NCBI GenBank assembly: GCA_036338595.1
Contig: JAYZBV010000071.1
Coordinates: 18,442-82,441 of the forward strand
Direction: 5' to 3'
Source: Planctomycetota bacterium
Lineage (GTDB): Bacteria > Planctomycetota > UBA8108 > UBA1146
DNA: 64,000 nt
This document shows positions 6,900 through 10,600 of the stretch, piece after piece. The notes beneath the pieces were generated by a model, which did not search any database, was not told the origin of the DNA, and was given only the letters and a program-made list of their open reading frames with translations. A program made the translations under genes and the position numbers. The first letter of the stretch is position 1; each line of letters starts with the position of its first letter.

Positions 6900-6928
6900 T
6901 GTAAGTATCCAATATCAAGATACTTACA
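6900..6928. repeat. Perfect 10-bp AT-rich inverted repeat
   Basis: TGTAAGTATC-9 nt-GATACTTACA. Confidence 0.7.
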
Positions 6929-7253
6929 ATCTGATACCCGGCTCCAGGGATCGAACCCGTGGCAATTTCCGCAACGACCGAGATGGGCCGGAAAAGGTGG
7001 ATACCCCTAGAATTCGGGACTCGCTAGGGAATTTACTGCTTCCCCATCGGGTCAGAAGGTGGCTATCCTTCGGGCAGTGACATTTGAGCCCCTTGCCTGC
7101 ACCGTGGCGGGCTTCATGCCGAGGGGACCAGATTCAGGGCGCTGGCTGGATAATGCGGGAATCCAGGAAGCCAGCATTTGTATTTGCAACGATCAGAAAA
7201 CCCTCGGAGCGCGATCCTGGCAAGGGTCGTATCGGGGTCAGAAAGGGGATTTC

Positions 7254-7445
7254 ATGTCCAATCAACGCGAGATGCTGCTCGTCGGGAGCAAGGCAAAGGC
7301 AGCGCTCAAGCAGCACGATGTGAACGTCGGAGGCGATGCCCTCGACGGTCTCAACGAGATCCTGCACCAGTGCATCGAGCAGGCCGCCAAGCGAGCCAGC
7401 CAGAACGGACGCAAGACCGTTCGTTCCCACGACTTCATCTGCTAG
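7254..7445 (+). CDS. Bacterial histone-fold protein (63 aa)
   Basis: MSNQREMLLVGSKAKAALKQHDVNVGGDALDGLNEILHQCIEQAAKRASQNGRKTVRSHDFIC; LLVxSKxK and A..NGRKTVxxxD signature; GAAAGGGG RBS. Confidence 0.9.
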   Translation: MSNQREMLLVGSKAKAALKQHDVNVGGDALDGLNEILHQCIEQAAKRASQNGRKTVRSHDFIC

Positions 7446-7473
7446 TCGACAAGACACGCATGGTGTCAGATTC

Positions 7474-7514
7474 GTAGGCCTCGTCGCTACCAGCGCCGAG
7501 GCCTACCTTCTTTT
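7474..7514 (+). terminator. Rho-independent terminator of the histone gene
   Basis: GTAGGCCTCG...CGAGGCCTAC stem followed by CTTCTTTT. Confidence 0.75.
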
Positions 7515-7559
7515 AGCACCATGGGTGCGGCGCAGCGGATACATGGGGCACATCTGCAT

Positions 7560-7597
7560 CGTGCCGTTCAGGGAGATCCGTGCCGTTCAGGGAGATC
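7560..7597. repeat. Perfect tandem duplication, 2 x 19 bp
   Basis: CGTGCCGTTCAGGGAGATC twice. Confidence 0.9.
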
Positions 7598-7604
7598 CTG
7601 GAAC

Positions 7605-10600
7605 CTAGTCTGATTTATCCCGGTCCGCTTCGAAGTCTTCCTTGCGGATTTCATGGCGTTTGAGAAGGTTTGATAGTTGAGGTCGATGGATCCCCAGAGC
7701 CTCCGCAGCTCGAGTGATGTTTCCACCACTTCTGAATAGTTCTGCAATGATGTAGCGCCGCTCCAGCGCTGCCTTCGCCTCCTTGAGGGTCAGCTCACCC
7801 GAGGTCAACCGTGCCACTTCCTGATCGAGGTCAGGCTTCTGGGAGGAACGAAAGAGATCGACTCGACCACTTGTGAGTTCCGTGATCTCGACCGAGCCGA
7901 CAGAGTACCAGTGCGGCAATACACTGACGGGGACTTCTACCGGCAATCCGAATTCTTCACGAAGGTCATGAAGGGCATGCTGAAGATCCCTGCTCTTCTT
8001 GCGAAGATCATCTTCCCCTGGCCCGATCATCACGCAAACCAGGTGATCGCCTCCAGTGTAATAGACGCCTGATATCGGCTGCAGGATTTGAAGTAACCGG
8101 TTCACAATGTTTTCGTCTTCACGTTCTCTGAGCAAGATATCAAAACCTGGCAGACTCACTTCCAGAAAGCCCAGCGGCTCCTTTTCTCTGTGGTGGCGCG
8201 ACAGGAAGTAATCGATGTCTGCATCAAAAGCAGCCAGCGACCCGATCTCGCTCTGCTGGTACTCGAGCATCTGCGCATTTTTGGACAGTGCTACCAGCTG
8301 ACCCTGGGCCATCGAGAGTAATCTCTCGACCTCCTCAACATCCCGATCCTGGAACGGGTTCCCTGCTGTGGGACGTTCCAGCACCAGTGCTGCCGAGAGC
8401 ATTCCCTGAGCCGAGAACGGGATCGCCAGCAGGCTCCTACCTCTCACCGAATCACCCTGCGTGTGAGTAGAGATCCATTCATCCCAGGTCTGGGACCCAC
8501 TTCGCATCGGCATCGAGCGTTCGATGCACTCCTGGGCCAGAGCACCGAGCACCTGCGAAGGTGGCAGCCAGTCCTCGGCGAGTCCCATGTCTATGTCGGC
8601 GAGGCTTTGCCACCGTCGCCGCCGTCTTGCCGCGATGAAACCGCGAGGACTGGGGACCAATCTCCGGCATTGCTCCAGCAAGCCTTCAAGGAACGAGCGA
8701 AGTTCATCTCGTTTTCCAAGTTCCGAGATGGCACCGGCAACGGCAGCAAGTCGATCCTGATCGAGAGAGCCGCCGGAGCGTGTCCCTGTTTCAGGATCAG
8801 CGTCGGGGACAGAATACGGCCCCGACCCGGTCACAGCCGGCGGCGGGTAATCTGATTCGCGGCGAAATCGTTGAAGGTCTGCAAAGAAGTTCTTTCGCCT
8901 GCGATCATCCAGATACACGACTCGCATATCTTCTGGCAGTCGTGTAGAGATTCTCTCGATGATGGCAGCAGCTCGATCGTAGTTGACCCTTGCGCCCTGA
9001 AAATCGTGGGATCCTTGCTCGACCCTGGCTATGGCATAATTGATCTGCCACTGGAGCGGCAGCAAGGAATCTGCGCTGATCATCTGGAGAGCTTTCTTGT
9101 AGTACTCGAGAGATTTTTGCTGACCGTCTTCATTACGCTGGCGGCTGATGGCCCCCTTGACCAGCAACCCTCGGACGATCAGGGGTACCGACTGCAAGGA
9201 CTCTGCGATGAGCAGTCCGCGGCTGACGAACTTCAGTGCCTCCTCGAAAGCTTCTCGTTCGGTGCCGAGCTGAGCGCGATCGAACAAGCTGGCGGCAGCG
9301 ACCCGATCCAGCCCCTGCTTCTGTGCAAGATCGAAGGATTTCTTCAACTCTCGATCCGCGGACTTCCAGTCTCCCCGCAACAGCGCCAGATTGCCCTGAA
9401 GCCTGTGCCCCTCTGCCTGGTACCGTGGCAACTCAAATTCCTGGGTCAAGATGAGGATCTGGCGAGCCAGGTTCTCGACCTGCTTCCTCTCTCCGAGCGC
9501 GAACCAGGCCCAGCCCAGGTGCAGGAACGAGCGCACGATCCCCTCTGTATTTCCAAACTTCTCACTGTTGGAGATGCTGCGCTTGAAGAAACGGATCGCC
9601 CTCCCGTAGTCTCCGGAGTGGGCGTGCAGACTTCCGATGGAGTTCAGGGTAGGAGAAATCTGATGGCTGTCTCCGATGCGCTCGCGAAGAGTCAAACAGC
9701 GGCGAAAATGCTCGAGGCTTCGCGAGAAATCGCCACTATTTCGATACACCTTGCCGAGCAATTCATAGGTGGCAGCCAGAGCCCTCACATCCTGCGAGCT
9801 GTCGACAACCTCCAGCGCCCTGAACAGGTAGCGCGCAGCTCTGAAGTGCTTGCCCCGATCGTAATAGACCCTTCCGATGGTGCGCAGCACCGATCCCAGC
9901 GCCACCGGGTCCTGTGATCGTTCGACCCTTTCTAGCAGTGTCTGGTAACTGTTGAGTGCCGCTGCAGAGTCTCCACGTGCGAGATGCGTCTCTGCAAGCG
10001 TCTCCAGGATGCGGCTCGACAACTGGTCAGCTCCGGCTTGCTGTTCGAGCCCGGCCAGTTCCTTTTGCGCCCTCAGGCACAGGCTCATCGCCCTCTTGAT
10101 GTCCCGGCGCTGAAGCCGGAGTTGCGCACGCAGTGAAGTCAACCGAGCGGGTGCCAACGGATCGACCTGTTCAAGATCGGTAGAACTGACCCTGTTCAGC
10201 GCTCTGATCCCCTTGAGCGGCTCCTGCATCAGCAGATAGATCTCACCGAGGAAAAGGCGTGCATCGATGCGATCGGCCGCATCGGTTGCCGGATCTTCGA
10301 GCAACATCTTGATGTGCAATTTTCCCGATTCTGGCTGGCCAGTCTCCACCTCGAGACGAGCCAGTTGCCCGAGGATCTCACTGCGCACCTCCGCATCTCC
10401 ATCGGCTCCTACGAAGTCGAGCATTCTTCTCCCGATACGAATCGCAAGCGGCTCTGCGTAGGCTCCTGCGAAGTACCTCATCGCAATCAGCCCGTAAGGT
10501 ATCGCCAGCATCGGCTCATCGCCGGCAGCGAGAAGTTCGTGCACCTCGAAGGCGCGCACAGGGTCCTGGCTACGGGAATCCTCGGCCAGGGTCTGACCCA

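Follow-up and report, generated by a model that had tools for sequence, protein, structure and literature searches.

The closest solved relative of the protein described here is HLp of Leptospira perolatii (9QT0, 9QT1, and 9QT2), which forms a stable tetramer, held together by R49, N53, and R55, around which about 60 bp of DNA is wrapped (PMC12701072). HTkC of Thermococcus kodakarensis (9F2C) belongs to the same face-to-face (FtF) class, and its ring tetramer wraps DNA (bioRxiv 10.64898/2025.12.06.692711). FtF histones are defined by the ring tetramer and its interface residues; in the published FtF model the carboxyl group of the residue that follows the clamp aspartate pairs with the interface arginine, and dimer histones are described as lacking the tetramer-interface arginine and asparagine (PMC11390915). 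According to the same paper, Planctomycetota are a main bacterial host of FtF histones. DUF1931 proteins are placed in a separate class, the two-fold pseudodimers (PMC12701072).

Histones of the phylum have been tabulated. Orthologs from TMED53 (OUU22788.1) and UBA1146, 79% and 87% identical to the protein considered here, were already listed, as sequences only, in Table S1 of PMC10627809 (2023). The genome list of that survey includes Pirellula, Isosphaera, Rubinisphaera, and Rhodopirellula, but its histone list does not, so that within this survey the best-known cultured planctomycetes checked are without such a histone. No entry for Gemmata was seen in the files of PMC10627809 that were searched (those other than files 6, 7, and 9), and a search of the supplements of PMC11390915, one file excepted, gave no match to any of five taxon names. 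A literature search yielded no experiments on any planctomycete histone, in agreement with a first-pass annotation of this DNA, made from the sequence alone, which had considered such histones experimentally uncharacterized; by a term search, the word "histone" does not occur in a 2025 review of the phylum.

The gene studied here lies in a 64,000-nucleotide stretch of Planctomycetota DNA (the window) and was found in a single copy in its own genome (assembly 88% complete). In the AlphaFold model (66-sequence alignment; mean pLDDT, 91), helices are predicted at residues 11 to 19, 29 to 50, and 59 to 62, forming one histone fold with no further domain, and the second and third of these, in an ungapped alignment with HLp, correspond to the short alpha2 and truncated alpha3. 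HLp, HBb, and HTkC were the top Foldseek matches, with HLp ranked first (48% identity; rmsd, 0.8 to 0.9 Å) and HTkC at 32 to 34% identity (rmsd, 1.0 to 1.1 Å). 9QT0 was also the best PDB match by sequence (E = 1.5e-10, ungapped over 58 residues), and HBb was matched at E = 1.9e-4. Thus, the stand-alone bacterial histone proposed in the first-pass annotation is borne out by its closest solved relative and by the confidently modeled fold.

The annotation had also placed the protein nearer a "face-to-face/DUF1931-like" class and had proposed profile searches for DUF1931 and for the Pfam histone family. The face-to-face half of this assignment stands, with HLp ranked over HBb and R47 and N51 invariant. 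The DUF1931 half falls: PF09123 matched neither the protein, nor the 66 aligned homologs, nor the genome (a genome search in which controls matched in 3 of 14), and the chain of 63 amino acids holds one fold. The DUF1931 label was traced to the PDB name of HLp. The Pfam histone family did match, at a level below threshold (E = 0.11), as did an NCBIfam model beneath its cutoff (E = 2e-5).

Residue conservation was counted over 120 homologs listed, query included; all 318 of 318 candidates passed an E value of 0.001. R49, N53, R55, and the clamp residue D62 of HLp correspond, with an offset of two, to R47, N51, R53, and D60, and R47, N51, and R53 are present in 120/120 of the homologs listed. 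Because these tetramer residues are kept throughout, the protein is assigned to the FtF alpha3 class and not to DUF1931. In the RxTxxxxD motif (the RD clamp), R53 and T55 are likewise present in 120/120, and D60 is present in 118/120. The exposed lysines of alpha1 are nearly as constant (K13 in 120, K15 in 118, and K19 in 113 of the 120 homologs listed). Seven DNA-contact residues of HLp (S14, K15, K17, K21, G29, T57, and R59) are matched by identical residues here, and four (A13, T27, K54, and T56) by differing ones. The chain continues two residues beyond F61 (I62-C63), and every one of the 120 homologs listed has an extension of 2 to 9 residues past this position. By every sequence feature checked the protein is an FtF alpha3 histone, for which the ring is a prediction.

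Some parts of the protein are less constant. The suggestion in the annotation that two cysteines may allow redox or metal control finds no support in the family, since Cys40 occurs in 2/120 and Cys63 in 12/120 of the homologs listed; control based on Cys40 was rejected on that count. A basic N-terminal tail is present in 62 of the 120 homologs listed and absent here. In a subgroup of homologs (P0075, P0095, P0109, and P0120; L141, L142, and L160) the N-terminal tail is acidic and carries two Trp-Asp-Ser repeats in place of the usual Lys/Ala-rich sequence.

The histone gene is real and conserved. As first annotated, a 63-amino-acid open reading frame lies inside a longer called one, with a ribosome-binding site and its own terminator, and each of these was found, with the motifs as quoted (Table 1). 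The enclosing GTG frame (7059 to 7445, 128 codons) was rejected as a gene: across 20 loci the frame open 5′ of the conserved core varies from 5 to 88 codons, and because of this variation the 128-codon extension is considered accidental in this genome. A longer upstream start was also miscalled for HLp (PMC12701072). When 54 codons of the window were compared with those of 19 relatives, differences at codon positions 1, 2, and 3 numbered 85, 57, and 433, and 373 codon differences were synonymous versus 112 nonsynonymous, which indicates purifying selection. The region from 7446 to 7520 folds at −32.7 kcal/mol (z = −5.4), a stability that 0 of 200 shuffles equaled. Its terminator hairpin was not listed by the pattern scanner of the window, and the histone genes of relatives are followed by comparable hairpins of different letters. 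A small hairpin separates the stop codon from the terminator (7453 to 7467, plus strand), and several relatives have hairpin-like sequences, again of other letters, in the same place. No clear 3′ end of the 16S rRNA was identified in the assembly.

Table 1. Features of the histone locus and its surroundings (positions in the window)
Feature	Position	Strand	Remarks
Acidic, likely secreted protein, 673 aa	993-3014	+	Weak C-terminal dockerin-like match, E = 0.024
Predicted −10 box, TATCCT	7064-7069	+	Conserved in 21-leader alignment (one row cut by contig end)
Conserved ~180-nt 5′ leader, predicted structured RNA	7076-7253	+	Alignment, covariance model, pair counts
Domain 1, stem P1	7089-7094 with 7121-7126	+	Encloses P2 and CATGCC
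Hairpin P2	7095-7100 with 7107-7112, loop 7101-7106	+	Pairs kept in 24 to 27 of 27 leaders (register picked per sequence from two options)
Invariant unpaired CATGCC (CAUGCC bulge)	7115-7120	+	In domain 1
Domain 2, stem P3a	7141-7146 with 7170-7175	+	98.4% of cells paired
Inner stem P3b	7147-7151 with 7161-7165	+	Within domain 2
P3 loop	7152-7160	+	Complementary to P2 loop; predicted kissing pair
Hairpin P4	7201-7240	+	Ends right before Shine-Dalgarno site
Shine-Dalgarno site	7241-7249	+	Purine-rich; purine block conserved in leader alignment
Histone gene, 63 aa plus stop	7254-7445	+	FtF alpha3 class, no N-terminal tail (P0001)
Intrinsic terminator	7474-7514	+	10-bp GC-rich hairpin plus U-tract; folding z = −5.4
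Regulator, 1,445 aa	7605-11942	−	AAA_16 ATPase, many TPRs, weak GAF match, C-terminal Fis-type HTH

The gene was found in 34 of 41 relatives, including 23/24 in the family and 5/5 in a sister family, and an alpha3-type histone was detected in 148 of the 301 genomes sampled across the phylum by a profile search that pools FtF and dimer types. Among the best 80 of 221 relatives, those named are uncultured marine Planctomycetota (UBA1146 and TMED53), followed by Acidobacteriota, Bdellovibrionota, Myxococcota, Krumholzibacteriota, and Elusimicrobiota; the organism itself groups with uncultured marine lineages. One locus titled "Bacillota bacterium" (L036) encodes an identical protein amid Planctomycetota-titled relatives, and its title is probably wrong. 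A second histone gene, HBb-like and without the interface arginine, occurs in a genome of the same order (L033:1656-1985, minus strand, plus the following gene; G029) that also has an FtF gene. The upstream neighbor, a fatty acid oxidation gene, is kept in 18/20 close loci. The AAA/TPR/Fis regulator, which is convergent with the histone gene, is kept in 19/20 close loci, 4/4 further loci of the family, and 4/11 loci of the order or class, a wider range than that of the leader described below. There are two HU/IHF genes in the genome. The link to condensed nucleoids raised in the first-pass annotation is unsupported, given these two genes and the absence of the four cultured budding genera from the histone list of PMC10627809.

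Sequences from RNA libraries cover the locus. Of the 23 runs listed, 20 contain part of the region from 6900 to 7620, 18 of them recorded as RNA, from 16 studies. In all four runs examined, each from a different study, one contig bridges the leader and the coding region (7122 to 7497, 7099 to 7453, 7104 to 7363, and 7131 to 7373), such contigs indicating presence and not strand, ends, or level. In the same four runs nothing covered the neighboring genes save a single piece of 132 bases, 11 of whose letters differed. As runs had been selected for containing this stretch, no ranking of expression follows from them; the histone may be abundant.

The conserved stretch upstream of the gene is laid out as domain 1, in which P1 surrounds P2 and CAUGCC, followed by P3, an A/U-rich linker, P4, and the Shine-Dalgarno site. 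Its 5′ end is placed from the TATCCT sequence, probably a promoter box, whose distance to the ATG is nearly constant (varying by about 10 nt) and which the sigma-70 scanner of the window did not list. In a model-fitted alignment (A3; 22 rows, one of them a chance match that is nearly all gaps), double changes were found at 19 of 31 pairs, and 85% of cells were paired, compared to 76.5 ± 0.8% in shuffled controls and 35 to 54% when the pairing was slid. Double changes affect 5 of the 6 pairs of P3a, which RNAalifold recovered on the unfitted alignment too, and 3 of the 6 pairs of the P4 inner helix (83% paired); they are also present in P2. P1 is more uneven: its first two pairs occur in 26 and 27 of 27 leaders, all from close kin, and its outer pairs occur in 7 to 22 of 27, and its probability exceeds 0.5 in 6/27 single-sequence folds. 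The outer-stem motifs of P4 occur in 21/27 leaders; a three-pair outer P4 helix was rejected as out of register, with one pair in 3/21. Also rejected was an upstream open reading frame from the AUG in CAUGCC, which runs for 7 to 109 codons and in all three frames among the 27 leaders (in one row the frame leaves the contig). The leader is very probably a real RNA fold.

The loops of P2 and P3 share 5 to 6 contiguous complementary bases in 27/27 leaders. Three pairs of this predicted kissing core are invariant and were used as anchors. The one variable pair is U-G in 11 leaders, C-G in 10, U-A in 6, and C-A in none; it is never mismatched, simultaneous changes on the tree are absent, and the distribution has a P value of about 0.08 under independent change. 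Pairing between the two loops is likely, with weak statistics.

The leader appears to belong to this one gene. The covariance model matched 19 of 41 relatives, once in each genome, and these come from three genera; 18 of the 19 genomes were in the training set, and the sole held-out genome, G002, was matched at E = 8e-27. Each match adjoins the histone gene, the one in G002 running into the first codons at a contig end. The leader was not seen at a second gene (the model matched once per genome, and the pattern matched once in the window's own genome), and a regulon or multicopy element was rejected on these grounds. For histone genes outside the three genera the model had no clear match (E below 0.1); weak matches at L160, L142, and L141 (E = 0.13 to 1.1) overlap gene starts and align unconvincingly. 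In two loci missed by the model, L020:1690-1884 (minus strand) and L133, a divergent leader has an inserted hairpin, and in L020 CAUGCC and a 6-bp loop complement are kept with unchanged spacing. Other genera of the family have leaders that are just as long but different, after a CACAAT box (L022:1270-1520 and L023:1270-1515, plus strand; L024:1715-1960, minus strand), and the hairpin-like blocks that these share possibly represent a second type of structured leader for the same gene.

No Rfam 15 family matched the leader at a score close to its gathering threshold (window and six related loci searched), and no published description of it was found in mostly open-access literature, supplements of RNA motif surveys aside. 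The leader is the undescribed part of this locus, and the histone itself belongs to a described class. The protein alone adds little, because its class has been solved, its presence in Planctomycetota is reported in three papers, and near-identical orthologs have been tabulated.

What the leader does is most likely gene-specific posttranscriptional control. It could instead be a fold that stabilizes an abundant, constitutive mRNA or enhances its translation and binds no ligand, a real possibility that we place somewhat below even odds. Such a role would suit a leader that contains no terminator and occurs in one copy per genome, and distant histone genes carry other or shorter leaders. Pairing between the 5′ strand of P1 and the Shine-Dalgarno site, moreover, amounts to at least 1 bp in just 6 of 21 validly anchored rows (6 of 27 were dropped for a misplaced anchor). 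However, an invariant unpaired hexamer and a conserved loop-loop complement exceed what a plain protective hairpin needs.

The same pairing bears on whether the leader is a riboswitch that senses a metabolite or ion and gates access to the Shine-Dalgarno site. On the raw alignment, where RNAalifold missed both P1 and the proposed register of P2, it paired the 5′ strand of P1 to the Shine-Dalgarno site, and this pairing, which shows covariation, would be an alternative state. Such a sensor would also fit the compact multistem fold, its conserved unpaired bases, and its likely tertiary contact. Yet this alternative pairing is weaker than P1 in every row, and an element that belongs to no Rfam family, never stands at a second gene, and is confined to three genera is very unlikely to be a riboswitch.

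It is still less probable that the upstream conservation reflects promoter or operator sites in the DNA, or shared descent, and not RNA structure. The leaders do come from close kin, part of the proposed structure was modeled on the sequence of the window itself, and the window's leader, folded singly, is no better than shuffles (z = −0.81). Against this stand the double changes in P2 and in P3a, the latter on an unfitted alignment, the drop in pairing in the slid controls, and the location of the stretch, which follows the −10 box and is continuous with the coding region in contigs from RNA libraries.

That the protein is an HBb-like dimer, bending or coating DNA but forming no ring, is most improbable, for although the HBb fold is nearly as similar (30% identity; TM, 0.85; rmsd, 1.2 to 1.3 Å), the lysine of the RKT motif is reported as typical of dimers (PMC11390915), and the C terminus extends beyond F61, where HLp ends, the interface arginine and asparagine that dimers lack are present in 120/120 homologs listed, identity is 48% to HLp versus 30% to HBb, and a genome of the same order has a separate HBb-like gene without the interface arginine.

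The reading that we prefer, with a probability of about 0.78, is that an FtF histone ring wrapping ~60 bp of DNA is produced from its own short mRNA, with a folded leader setting its output. By analogy with HLp and HTkC, four subunits would form the ring as two head-to-tail dimers joined via R47, N51, and R53, with K13, K15, K19, S12, G27, T55, and R57 contacting the DNA backbone. The ring would wrap about 60 bp without sequence preference, and the histone would act as a nucleoid protein alongside HU/IHF. The mRNA would carry a single gene and be about 430 nt long, and its ~180-nt folded leader would set histone output after transcription.

For the role of the leader we favor control through a bound protein, with the histone itself as the leading candidate, which would provide feedback when DNA sites are full. 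This is the least supported step of the scheme; feedback by the histone on its own leader is tentative, less likely than not, and close in probability to a plain stabilizing fold. The more specific proposal of a pseudoknotted leader through which bound histone represses translation or which, failing that, founds a new riboswitch class linking histone level to a metabolite is doubtful. If the feedback is real, this would be a bacterial histone with RNA-based control of its own dose; in the riboswitch variant, the level of a chromatin protein would be tied to a metabolite. How the dose of bacterial histones is set is not addressed in those portions of the histone literature that were available, and a short leader with covarying stems offers a direct handle on it.

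Autoregulatory leaders of ribosomal proteins are mRNA leaders that bind protein. The leader described here is likewise probably structured, limited to a lineage, and placed before a single gene for a presumably abundant nucleic acid-binding protein, a resemblance that is an analogy only, and it differs from them in having no Rfam match. The available portions of PMC12701072 do not mention a structured leader for HLp, nor do those of PMC10627809 for the singlet histones of TMED53 and UBA1146.

Among the known histones, HBb (Bd0055) of Bdellovibrio bacteriovorus (8CMP and 8FVX) shares the short alpha2, the truncated alpha3, and the RKTV motif with the protein described here but lacks the interface arginine and asparagine and remains a dimer. 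HTkC is archaeal and acts beside nucleosomal histones (bioRxiv 10.64898/2025.12.06.692711), unlike the histone of this host. HLp is the closest: it is also 63 amino acids long, with the same tetramer residues and RD clamp (PMC12701072). It differs in that the protein here has two additional C-terminal residues, the last of which is cysteine, and Gly-Arg-Lys-Thr in loop 2 in place of Lys-Arg-Thr-Thr. The neighboring genes encode a fatty acid oxidation enzyme and a large regulator rather than SMC and MAP, and this host, unlike Leptospira, has two HU/IHF genes. Because 62 of the 120 relatives listed have a basic tail and 148 of 301 genomes carry an alpha3-type histone, this protein is a useful test case of a tail-less histone that coexists with HU.
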